Source: a virus | Taxonomy: Duplodnaviria; Heunggongvirae; Uroviricota; Caudoviricetes | DNA: 31,841 nt | Direction: 5' to 3' (one strand) | Virus record (IMG/VR): IMGVR_UViG_2558860161_000007 | Location: 1-31,841 of that record | Part shown: positions 7,445 through 29,493 of the stretch, in pieces | Layout of the letters: the number at the start of each line of letters is the position of its first letter | Position numbering within the stretch: the stretch's first letter is position 1 | The notes under the pieces: model-generated | Told to the model about the DNA's origin: nothing | Databases searched by the model: none | What the model saw: the letters and a program-made list of their open reading frames with translations, nothing else | Translations under genes and position numbers: made by a program

Positions 7445-8503
7445 TTACGCTCCGGTTTCGGCTGCGGCGGCGCTGAAATCACCAATCTGGATGTTTTCCA
7501 CCAGTGCGGCGCAGCGGTAGTCCTCAACCACATAGGCTTCATTAACGGATTCAAAGTTTTCAATCCGGTCACGTTTCGGGTTGTCGATAACTGAACGGCG
7601 GCGGGTGTCTTCCTGCCAGTAGATGGACAGGTTATCCAGACGGGTGATCAGCAGCGCATTCGGCGGGAAGAACGGCGCACGCACGGCCTGCAGGCCACCC
7701 ATGCGTTTCTGGCTGATGATCATATCGGCAGCCAGTTTTTCACTGTTTTCCTGCTCTTTGTTGACCAGCGGGAAATACTTGTCAGACAACAGTTCACGAC
7801 CGCAAATCACCACCAGATCGTCATCGTCCTGGTAAACCACGTCGATAAGCTCATTGACGGCATCCATCACCACAGCGTCCAGGTTGGCATATTCGCCACC
7901 TTTCCCGACTTTCACCGCACCCGGAGTGGTTTCACCGCCCGTGGTGGTGCTGCCCATGACGTGATCCGGTGCATCCTCACGGATTTTCTGCAGCCAGCCT
8001 TTGTTCACATCCTGCAGCAGCGGGTTTTCGCTACGGTTGGAGGTTTTCGCACGCTTCACGCCGTTAAAGCCGATCATGATGCGGTCCAGTGCCTGACGTT
8101 TCACGATGGCGTCACGGATGCGCACCTGGAAATCCTGAAACTTCGCCCACAGATCCAGCTTCGCGTAGGTCAGCACCGTGTCAAAGTTGGTCTGCTCGCA
8201 TTTATATTCCACATCGACCATCAGGGTCGGATCGACGGGTTCACGCTCTTTCGCGGTGGTGTCAGTGGTTCCGGCAATGGTGCTGCCAACACCCAGCCCC
8301 AGCAGCTGACCGGACTGCTCAGTCACTGGCGTGACGTTAATCAGCGTCAGGAAAGCGGCGGACTGCTGGATCTGGTCCTCCAGCGTCTGCTGCACAGACG
8401 GCTCCACAGTGAATTTGCTGGACAGTTCTTCAACTGCCACACCGTTCAGACGCGCCAGCTGCTGCAGGTAAGCGTTAAAAGCAAAGCGGGTATTCTTCTT
8501 CAT
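7445..8503 (-). CDS. N: Major capsid protein N (P2 gpN-like)
   Basis: 352-aa ORF, size and sequence typical of P2 N. Confidence 0.9.
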   Translation of the reverse strand: MKKNTRFAFNAYLQQLARLNGVAVEELSSKFTVEPSVQQTLEDQIQQSAAFLTLINVTPVTEQSGQLLGLGVGSTIAGTTDTTAKEREPVDPTLMVDVEYKCEQTNFDTVLTYAKLDLWAKFQDFQVRIRDAIVKRQALDRIMIGFNGVKRAKTSNRSENPLLQDVNKGWLQKIREDAPDHVMGSTTTGGETTPGAVKVGKGGEYANLDAVVMDAVNELIDVVYQDDDDLVVICGRELLSDKYFPLVNKEQENSEKLAADMIISQKRMGGLQAVRAPFFPPNALLITRLDNLSIYWQEDTRRRSVIDNPKRDRIENFESVNEAYVVEDYRCAALVENIQIGDFSAAAAETGA

Positions 8504-9495: not shown

Positions 9496-11262
9496 ATGAA
9501 CACCACACTGACACCCGCAGATCTCGATCCCCGTCGGCAGGCCATGCTGCTGTACTTTCAGGGATACCGCGTCGCCCGCATTGCTGAAATGCTGGGCGAG
9601 AAAGTTGCAACCGTTCACAGCTGGAAAAAACGCGACAAGTGGGGTGACTATGGGCCGCTGGATCAGATGCAGCTCACCACCGCCGCACGCTACTGCCAGC
9701 TCATTATGAAGGAGCACAAAGAAGGGAAAGATTTCAAAGAAATTGACCTGCTGGCGCGCCAGTCGGAGCGCCACGCGCGGATCGGCAAGTTTAACAATGG
9801 CGGCAACGAAGCCGACTTAAACCCTAACGTCGCCAACCGCAACAAAGGCCCGCGCCGTCAGCCGGAAAAGAATGTTTTCACCGATGAGCAGATTGAGAAG
9901 CTGGAAGAAATCTTCCATTCCTCCATGTTTAACTACCAGCGCCACTGGTGGGAAGCCGGAAAAACCAACCGCATCCGCAACCTGCTGAAGTCACGCCAGA
10001 TCGGCGCGACCTTTTACTTTGCCCGTGAAGCCCTGATTGACGCTCTGCTTACCGGACGTAACCAGATTTTTCTTTCCGCCAGCAAGGCACAGGCTCACGT
10101 CTTTAAGCAGTACATCATAGACTTCGCCAAAGAAGTCGAGGTGGAGCTGAAAGGCGATCCGATGGTGCTTCCTAACGGAGCCACGCTTTACTTCCTCGGC
10201 ACCAATGCCCGCACGGCCCAGAGTTACCACGGCAACCTGTATCTGGATGAATATTTCTGGATACCGAAATTCCAGGAACTGCGCAAAGTTGCCTCCGGGA
10301 TGGCCATTCACAAGAAATGGCGACAAACCTACTTTTCCACGCCGTCCAGCCTTACCCACAGTGCCTATCCGTTCTGGTCCGGTGCGCTGTTTAACCGGGG
10401 CCGCGCCAAAGCGGACAAGGTGGATATTGACCTGACCCACAGCAATCTTGCGCGCGGCCTGCTCTGCCCTGACGGACAGTACCGCCAGATCGTCACCGTG
10501 GAGGATGCGGTGCGCGGCGGCTGTAACCTGTTCGACCTCGACCAGCTGCGCATGGAGTACAGCCCGGACGAATACCAGAACCTGCTGATGTGCGAATTTA
10601 TTGACGATTTGGCGTCAGTATTCCCGCTCAGCGAACTGCAGGCATGCATGGTGGACAGCTGGGAAGTCTGGACCGATTTTCAGGCTCTGGCGCTGCGCCC
10701 GTTTGGCTGGCGCGAGGTCTGGATCGGATACGACCCGGCGAAAGGCACGCAGAACGGTGACAGCGCCGGGTGCGTGGTGGTGGCACCGCCAGCCGTGCCG
10801 GGCGGCAAGTTCCGCATTCTGGAGCGACACCAGTGGCGCGGGATGGACTTCCGCGCCCAGGCTGACGCCATTAAAAAACTGACGCAGCAGTACAACGTGA
10901 CATACATCGGTATCGACTCGACCGGCGTTGGTCACGGGGTTTATGAGAACGTGAAAGCGTTCTTTCCTGCCGTGCGGGAGTTTGTCTACAACCCCAACGT
11001 CAAAAACGCCCTGGTGCTCAAGGCCTACGACATCATCAGCCACCGCCGTCTGGAGTTTGACGCCGGACACACTGACATTGCGCAGTCATTCATGGCAATC
11101 CGTCGCGCAACCACCGCCAGCGGCAACCGCCCGACCTATGAAGCCAGCCGCAGCGAAGAAGCCAGCCACGCCGATCTGGCCTGGGCAACAATGCACGCAC
11201 TGTTTAACGAACCGCTGCAGGGCGAATCCGCCAATACCAGCAATATTGTGGAGATTTTTTGA
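9496..11262 (+). CDS. P: Terminase large (ATPase) subunit P (P2 gpP-like)
   Basis: 588-aa ORF, nearly the P2 P length; Walker-A-like KSRQIGAT motif; overall resemblance. Confidence 0.9.
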   Translation: MNTTLTPADLDPRRQAMLLYFQGYRVARIAEMLGEKVATVHSWKKRDKWGDYGPLDQMQLTTAARYCQLIMKEHKEGKDFKEIDLLARQSERHARIGKFNNGGNEADLNPNVANRNKGPRRQPEKNVFTDEQIEKLEEIFHSSMFNYQRHWWEAGKTNRIRNLLKSRQIGATFYFAREALIDALLTGRNQIFLSASKAQAHVFKQYIIDFAKEVEVELKGDPMVLPNGATLYFLGTNARTAQSYHGNLYLDEYFWIPKFQELRKVASGMAIHKKWRQTYFSTPSSLTHSAYPFWSGALFNRGRAKADKVDIDLTHSNLARGLLCPDGQYRQIVTVEDAVRGGCNLFDLDQLRMEYSPDEYQNLLMCEFIDDLASVFPLSELQACMVDSWEVWTDFQALALRPFGWREVWIGYDPAKGTQNGDSAGCVVVAPPAVPGGKFRILERHQWRGMDFRAQADAIKKLTQQYNVTYIGIDSTGVGHGVYENVKAFFPAVREFVYNPNVKNALVLKAYDIISHRRLEFDAGHTDIAQSFMAIRRATTASGNRPTYEASRSEEASHADLAWATMHALFNEPLQGESANTSNIVEIF

Positions 11263-12305
11263 TGAGTGAACCCGAAGCCTTAACCAGCACAACGCTAACA
11301 GAAGCTACGGCACCGAAAAACACAGGCGTAAGTGCCGAGGCTTTCAGCTTTGGCGATCCGATCCCGGTACTGGACCGCCGCGAGCTGCTGGACTATGTGG
11401 AATGCGTACAGATGGACAGATGGTATGAACCGCCGGTCAGTTTTGATGGGCTGGCTCGCACCTATCGCGCCGCCGTACATCACAGCTCACCGATTGCCGT
11501 CAAACGCAACATTCTGACCAGTACATTTATCCCACATCCATTACTGAGCCAGCAGGCATTCAGCCGCTTTGTGCAGGACTATTTGGTGTTTGGTAACGCT
11601 TATCTGGAGAAACGAACGAACCGGCTCGGCGGCATTCTGTCGCTGGAGCCATCGCTGGCGAAATACACCCGCCGCGGGATCGACTTAGACACCTACTGGT
11701 TTGTGCAATACGGTCTAACCACGCAGCCCTACGAGTTCACTAAAGGCAGTATCTTTCACCTGATGGAGCCGGACCTGAACCAGGAAATTTACGGCCTGCC
11801 GGAATATCTGTCCGCCATTCCGTCCGCCTTGCTGAACGAGTCCGCTACGCTGTTCCGGCGTAAATACTACATCAATGGCAGTCATGCAGGGTTCATCATG
11901 TATATGACCGACGCCGCGCAGAACCAGGAGGACGTGAACAACATCCGCCAGGCCATGAAAAGCGCCAAAGGGCCAGGGAACTTCCGCAACCTGTTTATGT
12001 ACTCGCCGAACGGTAAAAAGGACGGCATCCAGATCATCCCGTTATCGGAGGTTGCGGCGAAAGACGAGTTTCTGAACATCAAGAACGTCAGCCGCGATGA
12101 CATGATGGCAGCGCACCGCGTACCGCCGCAGATGATGGGTATTATTCCCAACAATACCGGCGGCTTTGGTGATGTGGAAAAGGCCAGCCGTGTCTTTGTT
12201 CGCAACGAGCTGATGCCGCTGCAGAAGCGACTGCAGGAGCTTAACGACTGGCTTGGCGAAGAAGTGATCCGCTTCGAAGCCTACACATTAGATGTTCAGG
12301 AGTAA
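11259..12305 (+). CDS. Q: Portal protein Q (P2 gpQ-like)
   Basis: 348-aa ORF overlapping the P stop (ATGA); size and synteny as in P2. Confidence 0.9.
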   Translation: MMSEPEALTSTTLTEATAPKNTGVSAEAFSFGDPIPVLDRRELLDYVECVQMDRWYEPPVSFDGLARTYRAAVHHSSPIAVKRNILTSTFIPHPLLSQQAFSRFVQDYLVFGNAYLEKRTNRLGGILSLEPSLAKYTRRGIDLDTYWFVQYGLTTQPYEFTKGSIFHLMEPDLNQEIYGLPEYLSAIPSALLNESATLFRRKYYINGSHAGFIMYMTDAAQNQEDVNNIRQAMKSAKGPGNFRNLFMYSPNGKKDGIQIIPLSEVAAKDEFLNIKNVSRDDMMAAHRVPPQMMGIIPNNTGGFGDVEKASRVFVRNELMPLQKRLQELNDWLGEEVIRFEAYTLDVQE

Positions 12306-12355: not shown

Positions 12356-12694
12356 TCAGCAGACGGCATATACACCATCAAATCCAACAGAAGGCACCTT
12401 CTTTGATGCTACTTCATTGCTACGACGCTGGATCACCTTTGCAATACTTTTTAAAATTGAAGGGGATGCATTGCGAACCTTTACCTGGCTCAAAACTTTG
12501 GTTACGCCGAATTTCACAACCAAAACACCAAAGATTTCATCAGAGTATGATTCTGAAATTGAATAAACGCCGCTCAAATCCAAATCAACAAAGTTCCCCT
12601 CATTGATGAGAACTTCAATCTTGTGCCGTTGGGGGATAGCCTGATTGCGCGAAGCCAGGTCACCCTCGGGCAACTTGTATGCAATTTTATTCAT
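12356..12694 (-). CDS. Small STAS-like (anti-sigma-factor-antagonist-like) protein; second gene of a two-gene cargo operon
   Basis: 112-aa ORF; segment FVDLDLSGVYSISESYSDEIFGVLVVKFG resembles the STAS/SpoIIAA-type core; AGGAGG Shine-Dalgarno inside the end of the upstream gene, and its start overlaps that gene's stop. Confidence 0.55.
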   Translation of the reverse strand: MNKIAYKLPEGDLASRNQAIPQRHKIEVLINEGNFVDLDLSGVYSISESYSDEIFGVLVVKFGVTKVLSQVKVRNASPSILKSIAKVIQRRSNEVASKKVPSVGFDGVYAVC

Positions 12695-13815
12695 TACTCT
12701 CCTCCTAACGCCCGCATGATTTCCATAAGTTGAGGGTCATTTTCTTCGTTATCGTAATCTTTATCGATCGCCAGTTCATGAATCTTAAAACGGCATGAAA
12801 TTGCCACACCTGACCACTCTTTATGCAATTCAGTGTAGCTCAATTGATCACCAACTGCCTCTAAGCATACATTTCCTGTAGCCAGTTGCAATTCCCCGTT
12901 GTATGTTTTTACCAATTTCATCAAGTGATATAGACCAAGCCCTTGATGATTATTCTCTTTTTCTTTAACTGCTACCGGAACACTTGCACCAAAGACGCTT
13001 CCACCCATATTGTCATACGGCAATTGCTGTGCCCAATCATCTATCAGATCAGCATGTTTAGATGAGTTACCTTCTTGTATACACCATGCTATGGCATCAC
13101 GATGATTGTCAATTCCTTTGATGCCTGCGCGCCTTAACTCTCTAAAAAACCCCATGCCACAGTCTGCAAGAGCAAACTCAAGATAATGCTCTTTTCCACC
13201 GGTTCTTGGTACTGCCCATTTTTGCGCAAAAGAAAAACCGGTATCCCTACCATGCGACCAGACGTTGTCGTGTAACTCACCAACCACACGTGTGAGATCG
13301 TTTATCCCTTGAGGATAAACCTTCCTCTCAGGGAATGTTAATTGCCTAATACAGCTATTTATACTTGAAGTAGCTGAATCGACTGCTTCAACATTCTTCA
13401 GAGCTGTCACAAGGCTGTAGTTGGTTCCGACATTAACTCTTTTTTGGTCATAACGGTCTTCCCCCCAAACAGCTTTGTGCAGACCAATGGCATTCATGTA
13501 ACCTGCGCCAGGTAAGTTGCAAGCATCTTCTGACAGCTTATTGTGATTTATATAAGCAGCCAAGACAGCAATATAGCCAGGGTGACAATGGTCATTCGGT
13601 AAAAGCAATTTCCCCTCACCACGATCATGAAATATAGCAATGCGGTGAATACCATCTTTTAGACCAAATCCCATTGACCAATCTCCACGAAAAATTTCCC
13701 CTATAATATCGCCTGGGAAAACTGAGCGCAAAGTAAAGCACTTAACCAAGCTTGCGCGCGCTCGTATCCCCGCCACGCCTGCCCGCTTTATGTAGTGGTT
13801 TTCATGCACCTGCAT
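12694..13815 (-). CDS. GHKL-superfamily (histidine-kinase-like) ATPase domain protein; first gene of the two-gene cargo operon
   Basis: 373-aa ORF with N-box-like VVGELHDNVWSHG, G1-like LADCGMGF and G2-like HQGLGLYHL in canonical order. The first ~27 codons overlap the cos-like site; an alternative start at Met48 (~13674) has a GGAG Shine-Dalgarno. The region is lower in GC than flanking phage genes. Confidence 0.6.
   Translation of the reverse strand: MQVHENHYIKRAGVAGIRARASLVKCFTLRSVFPGDIIGEIFRGDWSMGFGLKDGIHRIAIFHDRGEGKLLLPNDHCHPGYIAVLAAYINHNKLSEDACNLPGAGYMNAIGLHKAVWGEDRYDQKRVNVGTNYSLVTALKNVEAVDSATSSINSCIRQLTFPERKVYPQGINDLTRVVGELHDNVWSHGRDTGFSFAQKWAVPRTGGKEHYLEFALADCGMGFFRELRRAGIKGIDNHRDAIAWCIQEGNSSKHADLIDDWAQQLPYDNMGGSVFGASVPVAVKEKENNHQGLGLYHLMKLVKTYNGELQLATGNVCLEAVGDQLSYTELHKEWSGVAISCRFKIHELAIDKDYDNEENDPQLMEIMRALGGE
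13761..13800. other. cos-like site (cohesive-end region) of the P2/186-type prophage
   Basis: Reverse complement reads GGCGTGGCGGGGATACGAG, resembling the 19-nt P2/186 cohesive-end core as I recall it; the flank is homologous to two repeats in the satellite (24567..24640, 24878..24960). Confidence 0.5.
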
Positions 13816-14569: not shown

Positions 14570-16984
14570 TTAATACAGGTTTCGCCACTTATCATCTTCC
14601 TGCAAACGCTGGTTCCGATAGAAGATACGCAGGCCTGCTCCTGACGGAATACTGCCGCCGCGAAGGAGTAAATCGACCTCTTTCTCGCTACCATCAAACC
14701 CTCTGGACTTCAGCTCATACACGAGCTGCTGTCGCTGATGGTCTGTAATTCGCTGTTTGTAGTCTTTACGCCGTTTCGGTTTAACCAGGTGTAACCTTGC
14801 TGCCAGTTCCCGGCGTTCTTTTTTGCTCATACTGTGCAGGTAATCGTGCAACTCCTTGTCATCCATGCGGGTGATATCCGTTCTGGTATCCCCATCAGCT
14901 GATTTGTCTTTCCCTTGTTGGTTCAAATTTTCAGCAAGGGGACAGTTATTGCCACGAGTCCAAGGGGCGCAAGCGCCCTGGTCGGCTGCCGCCTCCTGAA
15001 CGTCAACGGCCTTACGAACCATTTTCCACTTCACTGCATGAGTGCAGATCTTGCCCTCTGCAATGGGTGACCAGATGCCATAAATACGAATACCGTGATC
15101 GCCATAGGCGGTTGGCTCTTCGTTGATTTCATAAGCGGTTCTGATGAGGTGATATTTGCGGGGAACCAGTACGCCGCCCTGCTTCATGATGTAGGTGGCA
15201 AAACAACCAGCATCAGCAGCAGCCAGGATGGCATCAAGGCGCGGGTTATCCAGTACCGGCGCACCTGCTTTTTTGTCCCCCTTTTGCCTTGCCGCCTGAC
15301 CAGCCAGCAATCGCAGTTCACGGTAAGCCTGACGCCCCGGAATGCCAAAGAAGCGGAATTGCTGAACACGATGCAAAGACGCCCAGGCATTCACGTATTC
15401 AGCGTTATCACGCAGAGATTTACCCGTTTCCTTGCTGATCTCGCCAGCCAGACCACGCCCGTCAATGTTCTTACTGATGTATTTCGCTATGTAGCTTGTC
15501 GGCGTTCCTTTGCGCGGGTTAATCAGCTCAGACTTAAAGCGCGGCCCCGTGTTATTGCCCAGCTCCTCGCGGTCTTCACGGATAGCAAACTTACGCAACA
15601 ATGCTGTAATGGCGCGGCGGTCTTTTTTGCGCATGAAACACAACAGGTGCCAGTGAACTGTGCCGTCGTGATGCGGCTCAGCCACCCGCACGCCATACCA
15701 GCGCAACCCGGCTTTGTGCATCGCCTTACGAAATGCAGCAAACATACCGACCAGATAATCGCTGCTTTGTCTTACCGTCGCATTTGTCCAGGTCGGGTTG
15801 GGCCTGCCGTTGTTGAGCGTGGAATGGAAACGTGACGGACAGGTGATAGTGTAGAAAACGGCGCAGTCACCGCGCATTTCCGCGATAAGCTCCAGACCTT
15901 TAACACAGGCCATCATCTCATTGCGGCGATGCGCAGGGTTGCTGCTGCTGGCGTTTACCACATCCTCCATGTCCAGCGTGTCGCCGTCTTCGTTCACCAG
16001 TTCATGAGAACGGAAAAACTCCAGCGACTTACGGCGCTGCTCACGTTTATGCATCACGGCTTCATAGCTGACATAGGGAGATGCTTTTTTGCTGACCAGG
16101 CAGACAGCACGCAACTGCTCTTCCCGCCATTCGCAACGCATCTTCCATAATTTCCGATACCACCAGTCGGCGCACAGCATACGCGCCAGCGAACCCGGAA
16201 TGAGTTCATAGGGCACGGGTTTACGGCGGTTTCTTTTCCGACGGAGTTGCTCAAACGCAGGTGGGATGACATCCAGACGCAGGGTTTCCGCCGCCACCTT
16301 TTCCCATGTCTTGCGGATTTCTTCTGGCTTAACGTCATCGGTGGCATACAAATCGCCACAAGCTGCATCAAGGCACATGCTCATATGCGCAGCTACCAGG
16401 GTGGACAGGCGTTTCACCTGATCCTGACTCATTTCAGGCAGGATCAGCAGGCCCTCCAGCCCTTGATGGCTTGCCATAAAACGGAAAGAAGCAGACAGCT
16501 GACTGTCACGTACACAATCCAGTCGCTCCAGACATGGCTTAATCGTCTCACGCAAATAGCGGGAATAAGCCTTTGGCCTGCCCAGGCTGCTGAAGTATTC
16601 GATACGTTGCATCAGCGGCTTGCTGATATGGGAAGGCTGGGCGCTGACGTCCGCCAGAATGACCATGTCCGGGTTAAAACGCTGCTGTTCATGCGCCAGC
16701 TTTGCCCGGCTAATGAGCTTATCCTGCTCCATTTCGCGCTGGACAGGATCACGAGATTCATTAAAGAAATAACGCTCCCAGACCTGCTCACTCAGTGCAT
16801 CGCGGCACAGCTGTTCCTGCTCATTATCGGCAGCGTACAGAGTGATCAGGTTTAAAAGTGCAGACTCCGGAGCAACTTCCGCCGGGTCCAGATAAGGGTT
16901 AATGGCCTTTTTCGGGCCGTTCCATGAAAATGCTGCAGCGGCCTCGTTAAAGCCGCTAGAGTTGCTCATATCGTCATGACTCAT
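14570..16984 (-). CDS. A: Replication initiation protein A (rolling-circle endonuclease, P2 gpA-like)
   Basis: 804-aa ORF; HWHLL-type motif ([10 protein letters not shown]) and general resemblance to P2/186 A. Confidence 0.9.
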
Positions 16985-17838
16985 ACACGCACCTCGTACA
17001 CAGCAGAACTATCCACGCCACACGAAGGATCAAATCCCACCCAGCAGCGCGCCCCGGAAACAGCAATGATTTCTGTTGCAGATTTACTCTCGCCAGCCGA
17101 CACGCCGATGCTGCGTTTTGCCTTGATGTAGTGGTGAGTGAAATTTCGATACAGCGAACGGATCAGGGATGTGTCACTGTTAGAAACAATGACTGGATGA
17201 CCTTCTGATGATCGATATTCAAGAACAGATGCCAGGTGATACTGGTCATCTTCAGTGAAGCCGTTAGTGTGATAGCCGGAAAACGTACCGTCATAAGGCG
17301 GATCGCAATACACCACATCCCCCACCTGCAGCATCGCCAGCGTTTCATCAAAGCTGGCGCAGATAAACGTTGCTTGCTGGGCTTTCTCTGCAAATGCGCG
17401 AATTTCTTTTTCAGGGAAATACGGATTTTTATAATTACCGTATGGAATGTTGAAATGCCCGCTCTTGTTATAACGACATAACCCACGGTAACCATGACGA
17501 TTGAGATACAGGAAATATACCGCTTTCATGAAATCAGTAATTTCAGTGGAGTAATTAAACTCCTGCCTTATGTTGTAATAAGCCAACTCCCTGTTTGCTT
17601 CCTCAAATAAAGCTCTGGCACGAGATATAAACGCCTCGCAATCAGCAGCAACCTTTTTATAGAGGTTGATTAAATCAGGATTAATATCCGCAACAAGATA
17701 GCTGGGGTAATCCGTCTCCATCATCACAGCACAGGAACCCGCGAAAGGTTCAACCAGTCGCGGGCCAGCAGGAAGGTGTTTTTTCAGTTCGGACATTACG
17801 GCGGTTTTATTTCCCGCCCATTTCAGGATGGTGCTCAT
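16981..17838 (-). CDS. dam: DNA adenine methyltransferase (Dam-like, N6-adenine)
   Basis: ILKWAGNK N-terminal motif, FAGS motif ([10 protein letters not shown]) and catalytic DPPY; likely start is [11 protein letters not shown] at ~17838 (ORF track 17898). Confidence 0.85.
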
Positions 17839-18062
17839 ACAGCACCCCCGTTGTAATGTTTGCCTTTCAGCTCTGCGATTTCCTGACAGGTAATGCAAAG
17901 CTGCACACCCGGAATGGCACGGCGGCGTGCTGGCGGAATTGGCGCTTCACACTCAACGCAAAGCACGCGGGACACGCCCGGCGTTTTGGCACGGGCAGCA
18001 CGGATATGGCGCTGGCGTTCTTCTTCAACGCGCTGCTGTACGAGATCCATTGCATCAGCCAT
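17835..18062 (-). CDS. TraR/DksA-family C4 zinc-finger protein
   Basis: 75-aa ORF with CVECEAPIP...CITCQ (four-Cys finger), typical of phage TraR-like proteins; overlaps the dam start. Confidence 0.7.
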   Translation of the reverse strand: MADAMDLVQQRVEEERQRHIRAARAKTPGVSRVLCVECEAPIPPARRRAIPGVQLCITCQEIAELKGKHYNGGAV

Positions 18063-19785: not shown

Positions 19786-20418
19786 ATGATACAGGTAAAA
19801 GCTGGCGAGAATACAGGGGGAAGAGAGGCTATCCATAGACTAATGGCAGCCTATGATTTCAAGTCCAGACAGCAACTTTGCGATCACTTAGGCGCATCAA
19901 AAAGCACTATGGCAAACAGATACTTAAGAGATAGCTTTCCCGCAGAGTGGGTGATTCAGTGCGCCTTGGAAACAGGAGTTTCTTTACTGTGGCTAACCAC
20001 CGGACAAGGCGAACCAGGTTCAAACATTGACCCTAAAAAAAATATCAATTCTGTGAACTCCAGCAGGGTTAAACCTCTTTCTGAGCTTGTATCTCCTGAA
20101 ATTGACAAGGCAACTCTCAACGGTGGTTTATTGGTCGATGCTGGAAAAGCAATCATTGATAGCAGCATACTCCCCTCAGACTCAAGCAACCTGCTGCTGG
20201 TGAGTACTTCTGGTGATTCTTATTTAATAGATCGCAACCAAACACCACCAGTAAATGGTACGTGGTTAGTGGACATCGACGGGATAAAAAGCATTGTAAA
20301 ATTGACACGACTCCCGGGAAACAGATTAGTAGTGCATCAGGATGATTCATCGTTTGAGTGCGAACTGGATGACATTGAGGTAATAGGTCGCGCACTGAAA
20401 ATCATTAAGAGCCTTTGA
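19786..20418 (+). CDS. cI: CI-like immunity repressor
   Basis: 210-aa ORF upstream of and co-directional with int, divergent from apl; the N-terminal region looks like an HTH. Confidence 0.75.
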   Translation: MIQVKAGENTGGREAIHRLMAAYDFKSRQQLCDHLGASKSTMANRYLRDSFPAEWVIQCALETGVSLLWLTTGQGEPGSNIDPKKNINSVNSSRVKPLSELVSPEIDKATLNGGLLVDAGKAIIDSSILPSDSSNLLLVSTSGDSYLIDRNQTPPVNGTWLVDIDGIKSIVKLTRLPGNRLVVHQDDSSFECELDDIEVIGRALKIIKSL

Positions 20419-20419
20419 T

Positions 20420-21445
20420 ATGACCATCAGAAAACAGCCGAACGGAAAGTGGTTATGTGAATGCTACCCAAACGGGAGAGATGGCAAACGCGTACGCAAA
20501 CAATTTGCGACGAAAGGCGAAGCCATTGCGTTTGAGAATTTCACCATGGATGAGGTAAACAAGAAACCTTGGCTGGGAGAAAAGGAAGATCGGCGACAAC
20601 TGTCAGAAGTGATTGAGCAATGGTATTCCCTGTACGGTCAGACACTCGCTGACCCTAAGCGATTAATGGCTAAGTTAAAAATCATTTGTAATGGACTTGG
20701 CGATCCCATCGCTTCTGAATTGACAGCAGGTGATTTCACAAAGTACCGGGAAGCCAGATTAAAAGGTGAGGTCAAAAACGAAGATGGCGTGCTCATGTCA
20801 CCGGTTAAGCCCAGAACGGTGAACCTTGAACAGCGTAACCTATCCTCAGTTTTTGGCACACTGAAAAAGCTGGGACATTGGTCTGCACCCAACCCCCTCG
20901 CCGGTCTGCCAACTTTCAAAATTGCAGAAGGTGAACTGGCGTTCCTTGCTGCTGATGAAATCAAACGCCTGCTTGACGCATGTGCTGAATCTCAAAGTCC
21001 CAGTCTGCTAATGATTGCCAAGATTTGCCTGGCTACCGGGGCAAGATGGAGCGAAGCCGAAAACCTGCAAGGTAACCAGATATCAAAGTATCGAATTACC
21101 TATACCAAAACAAAAGGAAAGAAAAACCGAACTGTTCCTATTTCTCAGGAACTGTATGAAGAATTACCCAAAAACAGAGGAAAGTTATTCACACCATGCC
21201 GAAAGGCTTTTGAGCGTGCGGTAAAACGAGCTGGAATTGAACTACCTGAAGGTCAATGTACCCACGTTCTGCGCCACACTTTCGCCAGTCACTTTATGAT
21301 GAACGGCGGAAACATTTTGGTATTGAGGGATATTTTAGGACACGCTGATATTAAAATGACCATGATTTATGCCCATTTTGCACCGGATCATCTGGAAGAT
21401 GCCGTTACCAAAAATCCACTTCATAACCTCAACTGGCATCGCTAA
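20420..21445 (+). CDS. int: Tyrosine integrase (P2/186 family)
   Basis: 341-aa ORF; C-terminal catalytic region HVLRHTFASHF...LGHADIKMTMIYAH with the conserved R, H-x-x-R and Y; adjacent to the att core. Confidence 0.9.
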   Translation: MTIRKQPNGKWLCECYPNGRDGKRVRKQFATKGEAIAFENFTMDEVNKKPWLGEKEDRRQLSEVIEQWYSLYGQTLADPKRLMAKLKIICNGLGDPIASELTAGDFTKYREARLKGEVKNEDGVLMSPVKPRTVNLEQRNLSSVFGTLKKLGHWSAPNPLAGLPTFKIAEGELAFLAADEIKRLLDACAESQSPSLLMIAKICLATGARWSEAENLQGNQISKYRITYTKTKGKKNRTVPISQELYEELPKNRGKLFTPCRKAFERAVKRAGIELPEGQCTHVLRHTFASHFMMNGGNILVLRDILGHADIKMTMIYAHFAPDHLEDAVTKNPLHNLNWHR

Positions 21446-21562: not shown

Positions 21563-21607
21563 ATGTAGGAATTTCGGACGCGGGTTCAACTCCCGCCAGC
21601 TCCACCA
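21563..21607 (+). other. ssrA: Attachment-site core identical in character to the 3' end of tmRNA (ssrA), ending ...GGTTCAACTCCCGCCAGCTCCACCA
   Basis: The ~45-nt atgtaggaatttcggacgcgggttcaactcccgccagctccacca matches my recollection of the enterobacterial tmRNA 3' terminus; upstream is AT-rich phage DNA and the int stop, so only a 3' fragment is present. Confidence 0.65.
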
Positions 21608-21642
21608 AATAATGATCCGGATGTGTCCGGTGAAGTACAGAA

Positions 21643-21791: not shown

Positions 21792-22991
21792 GTGGCACGG
21801 ACAACTCGCCCCCTAACCAACACCGAAGTTCTGCGCGCGAAAGCGTTAGAGAAGGATCTAACGCTGCATGATGGTGATGGGCTTTTCCTGATAGTGAAAA
21901 CTAGCGGCAAGAAACTCTGGCGCTTTCGCTATCAACGCCCAGCAACAAAACAACGGACTATGATGGGACTTGGTGCTTTTCCTGCCCTTTCTCTTGCTGA
22001 TGCCCGAGGGTTAAGAGCAGATTACCTTGCCCTATTAGCCAACGGAATCGACCCGCAAATTCAAGCTGAAGTTGCAGAGGAACAGCAGCAAATCGCTCTG
22101 GACAGTATTTTTTCGACGGTCGCCGCTAACTGGTTCCAGCTCAAAAGCAAAAGCGTTACCCCTGATTACGCTAAAGATATATGGCGTTCACTGGAAAAAG
22201 ACGTATTTCCAGCTATCGGTGAGACCCCTGTCCAGCAAATCAAAGCCCGAACACTGGTTGAAGCCCTTGAACCGATCAAAGCACGTGGGGCGCTGGAGAC
22301 AGTTCGTAGACTGGTACAGCGTATCAACGAAATAATGATTTATGCGGTTAACACTGGCTTGATTGATGCCAACCCCGCATCAGGTATTGGTATGGCTTTT
22401 GAGAAACCCAAAAAGCAAAACATGCCGACGTTGCGACCAGAAGAATTGCCTAAGCTGATGCGTTCGCTAGTCATGTCAAATCTATCTGTTCCGACTCGCT
22501 GTCTTATTGAGTGGCAACTCCTGACGCTCGTGCGCCCTTCTGAGGCTTCAGGTGCTCGATGGGCTGAGATCGATCTCAATGCCAAACTCTGGACAATTCC
22601 AGCCGAACGAATGAAAGCTAAACGTGAACATATAGTACCTCTATCTACACAGGCGTTAGAGATTCTAGAAGTGATGAAGCCAATCAGTGCTCATCGCGAA
22701 CATGTTTTTCCGAGCAGGAACGACCCCAAAAAATCAATGAACAGCCAAACGGCAAACGCTGCCTTAAAACGCATAGGCTATGGAGGTAAGCTTGTTGCTC
22801 ATGGTCTACGTTCTATAGCGAGTACAGCTCTTAATGAAAATGGTTTTAATCCAGATGTAATTGAAGCAGCATTAGCACATTCGGATAAGAATGAAGTAAG
22901 ACGTGCATATAATCGTTCTACCTATTTAGAACAACGTCATGAGTTAATGAATTGGTGGGGTTGTAAAGTTTGCCCTACCAATTCATTATAA
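21792..22991 (+). CDS. int: Tyrosine integrase (P4/CP4-57 family) of the satellite element
   Basis: 399-aa ORF (GTG start); N-terminal arm-binding-type region (GDGLFLIV...KLWRFRY) and C-terminal catalytic region (AHGLRS...ALAHSDKNEVRRAYNRSTY). Confidence 0.9.
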   Translation: MARTTRPLTNTEVLRAKALEKDLTLHDGDGLFLIVKTSGKKLWRFRYQRPATKQRTMMGLGAFPALSLADARGLRADYLALLANGIDPQIQAEVAEEQQQIALDSIFSTVAANWFQLKSKSVTPDYAKDIWRSLEKDVFPAIGETPVQQIKARTLVEALEPIKARGALETVRRLVQRINEIMIYAVNTGLIDANPASGIGMAFEKPKKQNMPTLRPEELPKLMRSLVMSNLSVPTRCLIEWQLLTLVRPSEASGARWAEIDLNAKLWTIPAERMKAKREHIVPLSTQALEILEVMKPISAHREHVFPSRNDPKKSMNSQTANAALKRIGYGGKLVAHGLRSIASTALNENGFNPDVIEAALAHSDKNEVRRAYNRSTYLEQRHELMNWWGCKVCPTNSL

Positions 22992-23002
22992 GATAAAACA
23001 GA

Positions 23003-24421
23003 TCATACTTTACCGGGGTATGTTTTAAACATACTCCTTAATACGTCAAATGTCTGTTCACCTATGATTGAAAATTCTTTAATCATTTCCATTAAGTTAT
23101 TTCGGCTAATCAAGAAAATATACAAACCTTGATCTTTCGATATTTCTTTCACTCTATCAAGATACTTTTCCTCGGCAGAATTTTCGCAGAATATTAAACC
23201 TATCTTAGAATTACATTCTTCGACTTTTCTAAGTGTAGTATAAATATGTTCCTCGTTCAATTTATGCTGAGGATCAATGACATTTACAACTATCAACTCT
23301 GAAATAATGTTGTACACTGAAAAATCGAAAAAGAAACCTTTCTTAGCCTCATTAATTAATGAAAAGAGGCAGCACTGTTCATCCTCACTTATTAATTTGG
23401 GGTAAAACAAGCTAGGATAGAAGATTGAAATCAATATTTTCTTGTATGCTTTAGTGTAATTACTAAAGTCGTTGTTTTTAATTGATAAATCAATATCTTT
23501 CATTAGATCTTTTATGGGGAGAATTACAGGATCTTCATCCTTATCAAAATCACTATGCGCTAGAGGATTCGGAGGATTAATCTCCAGCTCTTTTTTATAT
23601 TCTTTCAAGGTGTTAGGGTATTTTACGAGCTGAGACTCGATAAATCCCTTAGTCTGACCATACTCATCAATGATACTTGTTGTGGTAACAATCCGCTCCC
23701 CTTTAAGCACTTTAACTAATGCCGAGCCAGAGCTTATCAATTCCTTTTTCATTTCCGGAATAATATGCCTCCGATATAAATCCCTATGTGAATAGATTAT
23801 CTCTTCACGTGCAAGTATCTTAGGAATAAGGATAATCTCCTCGCCTTCATAAACAGGGAGATGAAAACGATTTTTATGCCATTTACTACTAACCTTATCC
23901 CACGTTTTGACTTCTGAAACCTCTTTAGTCTCAATGCCGTAAAATATACAAATATCCTTTGTATATTCTATAAAAAAACCTTTGAGAATATTACAAACTG
24001 AATCCGATATTCGGTCAGAACCAATACCTGGGATAGTCAGAGCTGTATCTTCTAGATCAGTTAATATTCCTGATTTTGCAGCCTGACTACTCTTTAGAGA
24101 ATCCAAAATATCTTCAGCAGTTTTTTCACCAAGAGCAGTTCCGGATGATTCTTTTGTTGAATATCCTAAATGAAAGGCATTGGTCTCTCTTAGTGATGAC
24201 AATAAATAAGCAGCTTTTTTAAAATTATTATTCTTTATAGACGCCATTATTTCTGTAAAATAGTCTTGTAACGCGTAAACTAAATCCTGCCCCCATTGGG
24301 ATTTTAAAACCTTTATAGATGTTGGATCTAAAAAAAACCTTAAATCAGTATGCAGAGGAATATCCAAAAAATCTAACGCTACTTGTCTGCCTTCAACTCC
24401 AAAAGCCTCTGAAAACCTCAT
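23003..24421 (-). CDS. Hypothetical AT-rich cargo protein (~472 aa) in the satellite int-cos hotspot
   Basis: ORF 23003..24448; likely start is the ATG at ~24421 with a GGAG Shine-Dalgarno. GC is markedly lower than its neighbours, it is convergent with int, and I recognise no domain by eye. Confidence 0.55.
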   Translation of the reverse strand: MRFSEAFGVEGRQVALDFLDIPLHTDLRFFLDPTSIKVLKSQWGQDLVYALQDYFTEIMASIKNNNFKKAAYLLSSLRETNAFHLGYSTKESSGTALGEKTAEDILDSLKSSQAAKSGILTDLEDTALTIPGIGSDRISDSVCNILKGFFIEYTKDICIFYGIETKEVSEVKTWDKVSSKWHKNRFHLPVYEGEEIILIPKILAREEIIYSHRDLYRRHIIPEMKKELISSGSALVKVLKGERIVTTTSIIDEYGQTKGFIESQLVKYPNTLKEYKKELEINPPNPLAHSDFDKDEDPVILPIKDLMKDIDLSIKNNDFSNYTKAYKKILISIFYPSLFYPKLISEDEQCCLFSLINEAKKGFFFDFSVYNIISELIVVNVIDPQHKLNEEHIYTTLRKVEECNSKIGLIFCENSAEEKYLDRVKEISKDQGLYIFLISRNNLMEMIKEFSIIGEQTFDVLRSMFKTYPGKV

Positions 24422-24566
24422 GTAACACTCCTTTACAATAATCAACATAAAAACAAGAGCATTCTTATTTTTATAGCAAAGGTGGTTTAATCACAAGATC
24501 TTATGAATTGAGCAACAATAATTATCCCTATTTTTTGAAGCTGACGAACATTTCACGTTGCGTACA

Positions 24567-25061: not shown

Positions 25062-25637
25062 TTATGCGGATTTTTTGCGGGTCTGCGCGGCCTGTCGGCG
25101 CATGAAAATCTGACTCTGTTCAGGCGTATATTTTGCCCGGTTGTCGTCTCTCGATGCTCTGTCAGGCCGGAAACCGATGGTTGTCAGAATGTCGCGATCA
25201 TCCTCTGCGTAATCAATATTTCCTCCGCGGGTTACATAAACGGACAGCGCTTCGCGAACACTGGCGGCCGCCCGGTCGAGAGCACGTTCTCTGACAATGT
25301 CAGGTTGTTCGCTGAGATGCATTAATTCCGGTGCCAGTGCGGCGGCCAGCGCGTCGCCGCTTACCTGCATAAAGGCGTGGAGCTGACACCGGATACTGAT
25401 ACGCTGCACGGCCTCATGTGACCGGATGTACTGCCCGGCCGACTGATTTACCGCCCATTTTTTCAGGTCAATATCATCCCGCAGCGCCTGTGCGGCCTCC
25501 GGTTCATAACGGGTGCAGGTCAGCTCCAGCTCCTTCAGCGCCATTTCTGCCCGCGCCAGTGCTGACTTGCTGCTCATCCAGTCCGATTTATTCTTCTGAC
25601 AGGTTTCAAAGGCCTGTTCCAGTAGTGCTCGTGCCAT
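25062..25637 (-). CDS. psu: Psu-like polarity suppression / capsid decoration protein
   Basis: 191-aa ORF; conserved AGQYIRSHEAVQ.ISIR and ILTTIGFRPD segments, as I recall for P4 Psu (190 aa). Confidence 0.8.
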   Translation of the reverse strand: MARALLEQAFETCQKNKSDWMSSKSALARAEMALKELELTCTRYEPEAAQALRDDIDLKKWAVNQSAGQYIRSHEAVQRISIRCQLHAFMQVSGDALAAALAPELMHLSEQPDIVRERALDRAAASVREALSVYVTRGGNIDYAEDDRDILTTIGFRPDRASRDDNRAKYTPEQSQIFMRRQAAQTRKKSA

Positions 25638-25653
25638 TGTCTTTTCTCCTGAA

Positions 25654-25896
25654 TCAGTGGCGCAGCGATGACCGGGCGCAGTCCAGAATTCGGGGCGGTG
25701 TTTCTGGTACTGTTTGTGGTGGTTCGGGCTTTTCTTCTGCCGGTGGCCGTATCACCTCGTCGATAGACTCGGTGGTGCGAAAGGTTGCGGAGCAAAAGAC
25801 ATTCACGCACTGGAGGTAGCTCTGTTTGACGTTATCTGACAGGTAACGGCTGGTACGGACATGGGCAGCCTGTTTGCAGTACGGGCAGCGCATCAT
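25654..25896 (-). CDS. delta: Delta/Ogr-family zinc-finger late transcription activator
   Basis: 80-aa ORF starting MMRCPYC with CPYC...C..C..CSATF, the hallmark of Ogr/Delta. Confidence 0.85.
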   Translation of the reverse strand: MMRCPYCKQAAHVRTSRYLSDNVKQSYLQCVNVFCSATFRTTESIDEVIRPPAEEKPEPPQTVPETPPRILDCARSSLRH

Positions 25897-26696
25897 GGCT
25901 TAACCCCCCGCGTTTTTTTCTTCTGTGCCAGCTCTTTAGCCCGCGCCATTCTGAGAACAGGGCTTTTATAGAGTTTCATATCCACGCCGGTGAGTGCCGG
26001 ACGGTGAAGCCCAATTTTTGAAATTACTGGTTCATGCTCCATGTTGAATGTGTAGTACCTGCTTTGCGCCAGTACATTCTCACCCAGCTCCTGAATGAGA
26101 ACGTTGTGAGGGTGTTCTTCTCCCTTAATCTCGAGCTCACGCAGACGTAACGCAAATGCGCGCACCAGTGAGGGAGGGATGTCTTTCATCACGGTCGCCC
26201 ACTCATTCCGGGAGTAGGCAGAGAACACCGTAAAATGCGTGCCGACGTACTTATCTCCTGATGTACAGGCGGACAGCATGGTACTGGCCTTATCATCGTT
26301 GAGTTCATCAATCAGGGCGGTGAATTCCTCCGCCAGCTCCCGACCGGCCACTCGCTGACTGTGTTCGGCTTTCAGTTCCGGGGTCATCATGCCGCGCAGT
26401 TCGCGAAAACGGGTACGCCAGTTCTGTTCGGCTTCGGCACTTTCATTCAGGGCGTTCTGACGCTCTTTCTCACTGCGGGCAATGGCCGCATCAATATCAT
26501 TCAGCTTCAGCATGTTTTCCGTGTGCGCGGATTTGGCCTTGCTGAACACATCAAGAGCGTTATTTATCGTGGCCTCGGCGTTCTGGTTTGCTTTCTCGTT
26601 AAGGGTATCCAGTGCGCTGTCAATGGCCGTGCGGATGTTCTCATCCTGCGTGCTGCCGATGGTTTTCATTACTGCGGTAAACAAATCTGGTTTCAT
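25893..26696 (-). CDS. sid: Sid-like capsid size determination protein (putative)
   Basis: 267-aa helical/charged protein in the sid position of the psu-delta-sid operon; assigned by synteny and character, not strong sequence recall. Confidence 0.5.
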   Translation of the reverse strand: MKPDLFTAVMKTIGSTQDENIRTAIDSALDTLNEKANQNAEATINNALDVFSKAKSAHTENMLKLNDIDAAIARSEKERQNALNESAEAEQNWRTRFRELRGMMTPELKAEHSQRVAGRELAEEFTALIDELNDDKASTMLSACTSGDKYVGTHFTVFSAYSRNEWATVMKDIPPSLVRAFALRLRELEIKGEEHPHNVLIQELGENVLAQSRYYTFNMEHEPVISKIGLHRPALTGVDMKLYKSPVLRMARAKELAQKKKTRGVKP

Positions 26697-26970: not shown

Positions 26971-27247
26971 GTCTGAACATCCCGAATGTAAATTTTATGC
27001 GGTATGTCCTATTAATTCATGCTGTTAGGGTGATTAAATCAATTTGCATTTCACTTTTGAAATCTCCAGTGCCTTATAACTCCTTCCAGTGCCTTTAAAT
27101 GGTCTTGAGTAAAAAAACAGCACCCGTTGTCCCGTGCTTTGTACAATTTCCCCCTGTTGCATTGAGAAAAAATATTCACAAAATAGAGCGCTACCTGATA
27201 CCGGACGGACACGTCCGGATCTCTGCGGATATTAACGAGGTAGCGTT

Positions 27248-27514
27248 ATGCACACAGTTTCATCAGTACCATCGTCCCCCACAACCGCGCACCTGATGCC
27301 GGTTTCAGCCCCGGCTCAGGAACGTTTTTTACGTCTCCCGGAAGTCATTCATCAGTGCGGTCTGTCCCGCTCCACGCTCTACGATTTAATTGCCCGCAAT
27401 GCTTTCCCGGCGCAGGTTTCCCTCGGGGGTAAAAATGTCGCCTGGCTGCAGTCTGAAATCACAGCGTGGATGGCAGAACGTGTCGCGCACCGCAACCGGA
27501 AATACGACGCATGA
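27248..27514 (+). CDS. AlpA/Vis-family HTH transcriptional regulator
   Basis: 88-aa ORF containing [29 protein letters not shown], the AlpA-type helix-turn-helix; GAGG Shine-Dalgarno upstream. Confidence 0.7.
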
Positions 27515-27549
27515 ATCAGAGCCGATTTCACAAAGCCCCTTTTTCTGGC

Positions 27550-27665
27550 TTGCATCCGTTGTGTGTTTCCTGGTACAGTTTTGTCGCTGTCGCAAAATCG
27601 ACAGCCGGGCGTGGAAACCCGAGCAACTCGAAGGCGACACCAGACGCGCCATGCGTCTTTTTTTG
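27550..27665 (+). ncRNA. Candidate small structured RNA (promoter-hairpin-terminator unit) in the satellite immunity-region position
   Basis: TTGCAT-18 bp-TACAGT promoter-like hexamers, hairpin gctgtcg-caaaat-cgacagc, then stem agacgc-gccat-gcgtct followed by TTTTTTT; the long overlapping ORFs here lack convincing starts. Confidence 0.3.
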
Positions 27666-27912
27666 TGTCGCAACTAACGCCACAGAGCGCCAGATAATGG
27701 CGTGGTGTGCGGATCGTCGTGCAGACGTCACTTTGTGTCTCCTGTCCGCAATCGCATATCATGCTGTCATGTCAATGGTAGCTCAGGCGGGGCAGCCCTC
27801 GGGCTGGCCGGTATTCTTCGAGGCCGGTATTTCCACCCCCGTCTGGGCTATCGCCACTGAGCGTGGAAACTCCGGCGATAGCAATAATTTGCTACTCGAA
27901 GGAGGTTGCCTT

Positions 27913-28110
27913 ATGGCTACGACCCTCACTCCGTCTCACCCGCAGTTTGTCTTTGTGTTTGCCGCCGTCCGTCGCGCAGACCGTAAGCCCCGTATCTGTA
28001 TGCTCCGCACCGTTGCCGGTGACGAGCTGGCCGCCCGCCGCACCCTTGTCCGCGAATACGTGCTTTCCCTTGCCGCCCGTCTGCCGGTTCTGGAGGTGTC
28101 ACATGCATAA
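27913..28110 (+). CDS. Hypothetical small protein (65 aa)
   Basis: ATG preceded by a GGAGG Shine-Dalgarno (gaaggaggttgccttATG); terminates with an overlap on the next start. Confidence 0.45.
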
Positions 28111-28402
28111 TAAAAATACCCCTCAGACCGTCTCAGCGCGTCGTGATGACCTTAACCCCATGAAGGAACACCTCAGCATAGAGGCGTACCATAAACTCAA
28201 TCGCGCCAGCGCCGTCTCACAGTTCGTGGGAGGAGATTTGCTGCGCCGTGAACTGAACGGTTTACACCAGCTATACCTGCCGCAGATTTTTAGTTATATC
28301 CATGAGGACGTCAGCTACGTCCTGGAAGAGCTGAAAGCCAAAGGCCTGTGCCGTGACTTTCTCGCCACGACGTCGGGAAACGGAGGTGAGCACCATGTTT
28401 GA
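28103..28402 (+). CDS. Hypothetical protein (99 aa)
   Basis: ATG (MHNKNTPQ...) preceded by GGAGGTG; lies within the longer 27863..28402 track ORF. Confidence 0.5.
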
Positions 28403-29176: not shown

Positions 29177-29493
29177 AAAAGCCATTAACGCCCGTCTTAC
29201 GCGCCGCGCTCTATCGCCGTGCGGTCGCCTGTGCCTGGCTGACCCTGTGCGAAAGTCAGCACCGCTACCCGCAGCTCACGCTCAGTACGCTGGAAAGCGC
29301 CATTGCGACCGAGCTGGAGGGCTTCTACCTGCGCCAGCACGGCGAGGAAAAAGGCCGCCAGATTGCCTGTGCCCTGCTCGAAGATTTAATGGAAGCCGGA
29401 CCACTCAAGGCCGCCCCGTCGCTGTCCTTTCTCGGGCTGGCCGTGATGGATGAACTCTGCGCCCGCCATATCACCGCACCGGTACTGCACTGA
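29173..29493 (+). CDS. Hypothetical protein (106 aa)
   Basis: Start overlaps the previous stop (ATGA); immediately upstream of the primase gene. Confidence 0.5.

Follow-up and report, generated by a model that had tools for sequence, protein, structure and literature searches.

The closest described counterpart of the locus reported here is found in the satellite P4. In the passages of PMC10111431 that cite Forti 1999, the promoter PLE lies inside the gene eta, and Kil is described as a truncated Eta translated from PLE transcripts. According to the same passages, eta is coupled to alpA, and the translation of Eta prevents termination. The Rfam profiles C4 and isrK detect relatives of the P4 elements CI and seqA (PMC10111431), and the equivalence of isrK and seqA has already been published by Barquist et al. 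and by Hershko-Shalev et al. Earlier work has described the element together with its partner RNA and the target repeats, as well as the nesting of kil within eta and the isrK-seqA equivalence.

We analyzed positions 27550-27665 of a 31,841-nt stretch of viral DNA (IMG/VR record IMGVR_UViG_2558860161_000007; the whole stretch is called the window below). The original prediction took this interval for a small structured RNA analogous to the RNA-based immunity factor of P4. Part of that reading stood, namely the P4-like satellite, the RNA-based immunity region and a small RNA unit running from promoter to terminator. However, the counterpart of the CI immunity factor is a different sequence, the C4/CI RNA at 27771-27858. 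With a probability of about 90%, we interpret the interval as the homolog of the P4 early-operon leader in a P4-like satellite prophage, comprising PLE, the ~78-nt isrK/seqA leader RNA and the terminator t1. This interpretation draws on direct observations: family membership, homology with P4, the sequence elements, the co-variation of two target boxes with three copies each and the maintenance of an open reading frame.

Comparison with P4, Gifsy-1 and P1/P7

Positions 27317-28116 of the window were collinear with P4, with 78.9% identity over ORF88/vis, PLE, the old 'cI' ORF, kil and the start of epsilon. P4 itself matched the Rfam models isrK (60.8 bits) and C4 (cI, 74.9 bits) at the homologous places. 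The two loci were also alike in the order of their elements, in the nesting inside eta and in where these elements lie with respect to alpA/vis, kil, epsilon and alpha.

The IsrK of Gifsy-1, a Salmonella prophage, is the type member of RF01394 and scored 79.3 bits, against 73.9 bits for the window. In Gifsy-1, as in the window, a separate promoter precedes two hairpins and a Rho-independent terminator that is leaky; a C4-family RNA comes next, and after it a small ORF with a controlled ribosome-binding site (PMC4825925). However, Gifsy-1 is a lambdoid phage, and its module lies downstream of antQ and controls orf45 and the antirepressor. Its C4 RNA follows IsrK after ~25 nt, compared with 107 nt in the window, and neither an eta-like frame nor coupling to alpA has been described for Gifsy-1. 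The trans-activation of translation demonstrated for its IsrK (PMC4825925) is also opposite in sign to the role ascribed to seqA in P4.

The immI region of P1 and P7 (a1 b1 - c4 - a2 b2 - icd - ant), whose box motifs are listed in PMC2864571, has the same layout of boxes around an antisense RNA as the window. In both, the C4 RNA carries the complementary boxes and the first controlled gene is Icd-like. In the window, the downstream operon consists of satellite replication and derepression genes, whereas that of P1 and P7 encodes an antirepressor.

Promoter, hairpins and terminator of the leader

The promoter, the 5' hairpin and the terminator that had been predicted were all found in the sequence where they had been placed. 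The promoter (27550-27579, plus strand) has a -35 box TTGCAT at 27550-27555, an 18-nt spacer and a -10 box TACAGT at 27574-27579, with TG at 27571-72. It aligned with TTGCCT-18-TATAGT in P4, the constitutive promoter PLE. The TTGCAT/TACAGT promoter of the window was absent from the output of a consensus promoter scan, because TTGCAT agrees with TTGACA at only 3/6 positions. Our call is based on positional conservation rather than on that scan. In 68 related loci, the promoter was kept in position as -35 TTGnnn, 18 nt and -10 TAtAGT, and ~7 nt separated its end from the 5' base of hairpin 1, with which the Rfam isrK model begins.

Hairpin 1 (GCTGTCG-CAAAAT-CGACAGC) occupies 27586-27605 on the plus strand. 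Compensatory changes were evident in it, as all five variable base pairs were still paired in 62 of the 68 relatives, with 14 different 5' arms. The original prediction missed hairpin 2, the two target boxes and the downstream C4-family RNA. Hairpin 2 (CGGG-CGTGGAAA-CCCG; 27606-27621, plus strand) was recognized from the Rfam alignment and from the co-variation of box a, the first copy of which lies in its loop. The intrinsic terminator AGACGC-GCCAT-GCGTCT with its T-run (27642-27664, plus strand), the homolog of P4 t1, was detected independently by a consensus terminator scan. Its stem spans 27642-27658 and is followed by T's to 27664. The T-run had been written as TTTTTTT after the stem, which is one T too many; seven are reached only by counting the last base of the stem. 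The end of the terminator lies 151 nt past the alpA stop codon (27514), in agreement with the ~150 bp proposed originally. Terminator stems, 16 of them distinct, were present in 61 of the 68 relatives. Across the related loci, the hairpins and the terminator were conserved, and the hairpin-2 loop and the linker were hypervariable.

Membership in the isrK family

A scan of the whole window with Rfam gave two matches above the gathering score, isrK and C4. The isrK model (RF01394) matched 27586-27663 on the plus strand with 73.9 bits (gathering score 50, E = 3e-14) over its full length, positions 1-77 of 77. The covariance-model search that had been suggested for this interval therefore identified it as isrK, the family of the P4 'seqA' element; with hairpin 1, hairpin 2, the linker and t1, the leader RNA spans 27586-27664. 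The two 5' hairpins, the single-stranded linker and the Rho-independent terminator of this family were all seen in the sequence, in the covariance-model alignment and in the co-variation of the stems. The minimum free energy of the isrK interval as a single sequence was unremarkable (z = -1.64). The conserved promoter geometry suggests that a discrete, Hfq-binding RNA of ~77 nt might be made from this promoter.

The C4 model (RF01695) matched 27771-27858 on the plus strand with 76.1 bits (gathering score 45), again over the full model. This RNA, which starts 107 nt downstream of the isrK element and outside 27550-27665, had a fold z-score of -4.2 and is homologous to the immunity RNA of P4; we assigned it as the C4/CI-family antisense RNA, the homolog of the immunity factor. 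This was the sole C4 match, and within 27550-27665 the covariance-model search found no C4 match even at E <= 1. A third model, c4-a1b1 (RF03163), which Rfam keeps separately for the upstream target boxes, scored 42.2 bits at 27573-27625 (E = 2.4e-9 in a small search), below its gathering score of 46.7. Several relatives and Gifsy-1 passed this threshold. The window is a near miss with the same architecture.

Target boxes and their co-variation

The proposed search for complementarity between this RNA and downstream leader sequences was positive: two boxes of the leader are complementary to two sites of the C4/CI RNA. Box a1 (GTGGAAA, 27611-27617) lies in the loop of hairpin 2. Box b1 (ACTCGAAGG, 27626-27634) lies in the single-stranded linker before the terminator and corresponds to the core of P4 seqA. 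In the C4 RNA, box b' (CTTCGAG, 27816-22) occupies the loop of the second hairpin, and box a' (TTTCCAC, 27830-36) the single-stranded junction. Further downstream, the box search revealed a repeat of a1, box a2 (GTGGAAA, 27863-27869), and box b2 (ACTCGAAGG, 27894-27902), which overlaps the Shine-Dalgarno sequence GGAGG (27901-05) of kil and corresponds to P4 seqC. All six are on the plus strand. Each box is thus present in three matched copies, in the leader, in the C4 RNA and upstream of or over the kil Shine-Dalgarno sequence. The targets have the order a-b and the C4 RNA has the order b'-a', as expected for antiparallel pairing. The 9-mer of b1 and b2 occurs exactly twice in the window, with 0.15 copies expected by chance.

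These results came from exact-box searches, which replaced a scan of the whole window with the C4 core in RNAduplex. That scan was uninformative, as its top hits were only the C4 RNA's own antisense; GC-rich stems gave -38 kcal/mol at 29377-29431 on the minus strand, compared with -39.2 and -37.9 kcal/mol for the true sites.

All three copies of both boxes differ between the window and P4, and the changes are coordinated and compensatory. Box a (a1/a'/a2) reads GTGGAAA/TTTCCAC/GTGGAAA in the window and GTGAGAA/TTCTCAC/GTGAGAA in P4. Box b reads CTCGAAG in the window and TTCACAGG in P4; with its surroundings, the seqA site (b1) is AACTCGAAGG in the window versus AATTCACAGG in P4, the C4 loop (b') is TTCTTCGAGG versus TCCTGTGAAG, and the Shine-Dalgarno site (b2) is CTACTCGAAGGAGG versus CTATTCACAGGAGG.

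We extended this comparison to the relatives. A linker 7-mer was counted as matched for box b when its reverse complement was found downstream and the same 7-mer occurred again 60-95 nt further. Among 70 distinct linkers, 53 were matched within their own locus, compared with 13 of 4470 mismatched pairs. For box a, the corresponding values were 66 of 70 and 3 of 3844. The relatives carried 22 variants of box a and at least 37 of box b, in mixed combinations. The box b of the window is shared with E. coli UTME-7, its closest E. coli relative, and its box a with other elements. As both boxes differ from those of P4, and box a from that of UTME-7, we infer that the combination in the window (a = GTGGAAA, b = CTCGAAG) would specify a distinct immunity type, unlike that of P4.

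Distribution among relatives

For the survey, one genome per species was scanned for the invariant part of the element. Among the 120 loci obtained, ~95 were considered real; the other ~25 were chance matches of the pattern without a terminator (in Acidobacteriota, Actinomycetes and others) and were left out. The real loci came from Enterobacterales, Xanthomonas, Dyella, Stenotrophomonas, Vreelandella, Chromohalobacter, Microbulbifer and other genera. Of 18 of the most divergent loci, 17 had a C4 match next to isrK in Rfam.

The spacing between the two RNAs varied. In most relatives from Enterobacterales, the C4 loop box lay ~179 nt past the start of isrK. In the window, P4, UTME-7 and one further relative (L076), the spacer that separates the terminator from C4 was longer by 45 nt, which is a multiple of three. 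In loci from Xanthomonas and Halomonadaceae and in those of the Gifsy-1 type, C4 was within ~25 nt of isrK. Two loci (L013 and L074) contained two isrK elements each, ~7 kb apart. The second copy of L013 and a Xenorhabdus locus (L039) were of the isrK type without matching a'/b' boxes downstream, and L039 also had no Rfam C4 match. These two elements may be orphan or degenerate.

A long eta-like frame with nested kil

It had been proposed that the long ORFs through this interval lack a credible start before the ATG at 27913. We found otherwise: an ATG at 27511 overlaps the stop codon of alpA (ATGA), and the frame is kept open in relatives. The resulting eta-like ORF of 199 aa (27511-28110, plus strand) runs through the promoter, isrK and C4 in frame with kil. 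Among the 49 relatives with enough flanking sequence, 36 had no stop in the kil frame from the start of isrK to the kil ATG, compared with 4 and 6 of the 49 for the other two frames. The spacing classes were also separated from one another by multiples of three. UTME-7 is 95.8% identical, and its PGAP annotation contains this 199-aa CDS too. The kil or Icd-like gene itself (65 aa, 27913-28110, plus strand) would be the first gene that ribosomes can translate on a transcript from PLE. It matched the NCBIfam model NF033153 (phage_ICD_like) with 71.2 bits, and this model matched only inside kil and not the rest of the long ORF. The long frame of the window fits P4 eta with kil nested inside.

Pfam Phage_ASH (PF10554, 'Ash protein family') matched residues 37-161 of the 214-aa form of the ORF with 86 bits. 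The match (27574-27948 of the window, in the frame 27466/27511-28110) overlies the sequences of both RNAs, isrK and C4. In 15 gap-free relatives, the mean column entropy at the three codon positions over the RNA region was 0.556/0.512/0.503, without an excess at the third position. In the same relatives, kil showed a clear third-position excess (0.639/0.596/1.145). As there was no codon-position signal over the RNAs, the Ash family appears to owe its conservation to constraints on the RNA, inside a frame that has stayed open.

Satellite and prophage context

The AlpA/Vis-like gene (88 aa, 27248-27514, plus strand) matched Pfam Phage_AlpA with 68.1 bits and is collinear with P4 ORF88/vis. An epsilon-like helper derepression gene (28103-28402, plus strand; Pfam Derepression, 161.7 bits) lies downstream in the controlled operon. 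Pfam recovered the core set of P4, consisting of the integrase (21792-22991), Psu, Ogr_Delta, AlpA, Derepression (epsilon), DUF5375 and an alpha-type primase, which is cut at the end of the window. The order of the core genes is the same as in P4. The genes for Psu and Ogr/Delta and the gene assigned to sid by its position are on the minus strand (25062-26696). In P4, alpA/vis is transcribed from the late promoter PLL. Some 100 nt before the alpA start, at 27128-27145, we noticed by eye a TGT-N12-ACA sequence (TGTCCCGTGCTTTGTACA). Its form is that of the Ogr/Delta activator site in P2/P4 late promoters, and it is a candidate PLL-type late promoter for alpA-eta.

The first ~21.4 kb of the window (1-21445) is a P2/186-like prophage directly adjoining the satellite. 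It encodes a P2-family capsid (7445-8503), a terminase (9496-11262), a portal (11259-12305), a gpA replication protein (14570-16984), a Dam-type methyltransferase (16981-17898), a 186-type CI repressor (19786-20418) and an integrase (20420-21445). Between the two integrase genes, a fragment at 21570-21610 (...GGACGCGGGTTCAACTCCCGCCAGCTCCACCA) reproduces the 3' end of ssrA/tmRNA exactly. Thus a potential helper and the satellite lie in tandem at the ssrA attachment site. At least 80% of this junction is present in nine complete E. coli genomes.

Two places in these elements hold putative cargo. Between the P4-like integrase and psu, a known cargo hotspot of P4-like satellites, there is a 481-aa ORF (23003-24448, minus strand). 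It had no Pfam or NCBIfam match, and in PADLOC its residues 11-266 matched PDC-M36A, a model for candidate defence proteins (E = 2.8e-32). At the same place, the closest E. coli relative has a different gene, for an LA2681-family HEPN protein. Just past the portal gene, where P2 carries variable cargo, two ORFs of 373 aa and 112 aa (12356-13815, minus strand) likewise had no Pfam or NCBIfam match. The 112-aa ORF weakly matched part of DrmA in PADLOC (E = 9e-7). This pair may be uncharacterized cargo or a defence pair.

Proposed switch

The transcription, processing, termination and direction of regulation of this locus can be pictured by analogy with the work on P4, P1 and Gifsy-1. Transcription from the constitutive promoter would start at ~27586. 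The nascent RNA would form the two hairpins, so that the hairpin-2 loop exposes a1 and the linker immediately preceding t1 exposes b1. A fraction of the transcripts would stop at t1 and give the ~78-nt RNA. Those that read through t1 would contain the C4/CI RNA (27771-27858), to be processed to the stable immunity RNA; C4/CI RNA is processed by RNase P and PNPase. Through a' and b', the CI RNA would pair with a1 and b1 of new leaders and favour termination at t1, by which CI would regulate itself. Pairing of the same sites with a2 and b2 over the Shine-Dalgarno sequence would block the translation of kil. That block is expected to cause premature termination before epsilon and the alpha replication gene, resulting in immunity and lysogeny. 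When transcription begins at the late promoter that precedes alpA, coupling to alpA would lead ribosomes to translate eta through the RNA elements, and the switch would be overridden.

In P4, t1 reportedly lies between PLE and cI, and its efficient use is said, from the work of Briani et al. in 2000, to need both CI RNA and seqA. We examined a structural route for such an effect in a thermodynamic model. When b1 was forced to be unpaired, the probability of the terminator hairpin rose from 0.40 to 0.76 as a mean over 61 loci, whereas it was 0.40 when a1 alone was blocked and 0.35 when an equal number of hairpin 1 bases was blocked; the terminator register was wrong in a few loci (e.g. L008 and L013), so the absolute values are rough and it is the contrast with the controls that counts. 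In many relatives, b1 overlaps a hairpin that competes for the 5' arm of the terminator. In the window, blocking b1 moved the probability only from 0.88 to 0.89. The structural route for CI-enhanced termination is not visible in this copy, because the terminator is already favoured in the window, as it is in P4.

Alternative explanations

The leader interpretation has to be weighed against several others. That the interval itself is a trans-acting repressor RNA, the analogue of P4 CI, would suit a compact unit of promoter, hairpin and terminator at the expected place in a P4-like element, and also its complementarity to another RNA of the same locus. This is very improbable, and is in fact already contradicted by the covariance model of C4/CI, which matches 27771-27858 instead. 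The interval aligned to PLE-seqA-t1 of P4, upstream of P4 cI. Its boxes have the same sense as a2 and b2 next to the Shine-Dalgarno sequence and therefore cannot pair with them, and in the exact-box searches it carried no antisense to the ribosome-binding region of the first gene of the operon. With its sense target boxes and t1, the interval is a regulated leader or a decoy rather than a repressor. We give as little credit to the idea that the terminator simply ends alpA and that the hairpin upstream of it is fortuitous. The terminator does lie on the same strand, 128-151 nt downstream of the alpA stop codon, but a positionally conserved promoter separates alpA from the hairpins. In addition, the unit also occurs without alpA, e.g. 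downstream of antQ in the lambdoid Gifsy-1, and the alpA-eta transcript of P4 must read through this terminator (PMC10111431). Finally, the interval might be nothing but coding sequence, the N-terminal part of an eta, 'Ash' or Icd-like protein, with incidental hairpins. The long frame is open and maintained in relatives, Phage_ASH matched with 86 bits and PGAP annotates a CDS. As the sole explanation this is contradicted and scarcely credible, since the interval lacks the third-position excess seen in kil, two covariance models match, its variation follows the RNA features, its stems covary and its a and b boxes are hypervariable and yet matched to distant complementary sites. In P4, the RNA and eta uses of the sequence coexist, and therefore translation of the long ORF, which had been named as evidence against an RNA, would not refute one.

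A trans-acting function deserves more consideration, although we regard it as rather unlikely. The ~78-nt RNA that ends at t1 might be a stable sRNA that opposes immunity, as in Gifsy-1, and this might coexist with a cis role. Its a1 and b1 would pair with a' and b' of the CI/C4 RNA, either free or within the read-through transcript, so that CI is titrated, the kil Shine-Dalgarno sequence is freed and derepression follows. As a1 and b1 have the same sense as a2 and b2, they would compete for the same C4 sites. The interval belongs to the same Rfam family as the IsrK of Gifsy-1, which has the same isrK-C4 tandem. There, short IsrK acts in trans and raises the translation of orf45-anrP, which lies downstream, by 140-fold; it also shows complementarity to a processed downstream RNA, STnc1160 (PMC4825925). 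However, PMC3632133, where it cites Sabbattini 1995, reports P4 seqA as needed for the establishment of immunity. The IsrK-like elements of P4-like prophages were also required in S. Typhi TraDIS (PMC3632133), which fits a role in supporting lysogeny.

Implications

Two further suggestions go slightly past the literature and are modest leads, which we put forward tentatively and think more probably wrong than right. One is that the t1-terminated leader accumulates as a trans-acting sRNA that sponges CI/C4 RNA, also when this RNA comes from a co-resident satellite or phage with just one box in common, with immunity specificity being a combinatorial two-box code. The other is that the N-terminal ~134 codons of eta (the Pfam 'Ash' part) stay open for the sole purpose of letting ribosomes pass and thereby erase the RNA switch, the amino acid sequence being a by-product of RNA constraints.

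No new kind of system was revealed, and the importance of the results lies mainly in annotation. The interval should be annotated as an isrK/seqA leader with a PLE-type promoter and t1, and 27771-27858 as the CI/C4 immunity RNA. The 199-aa 'Icd-like' CDS at NCBI merges eta and kil; it should be read as eta with nested kil, overlapping both RNAs. For the family as a whole, the data from the relatives provide clean computational confirmation of the model of three-site RNA pairing across Enterobacterales, Xanthomonadales, Halomonadaceae and others.
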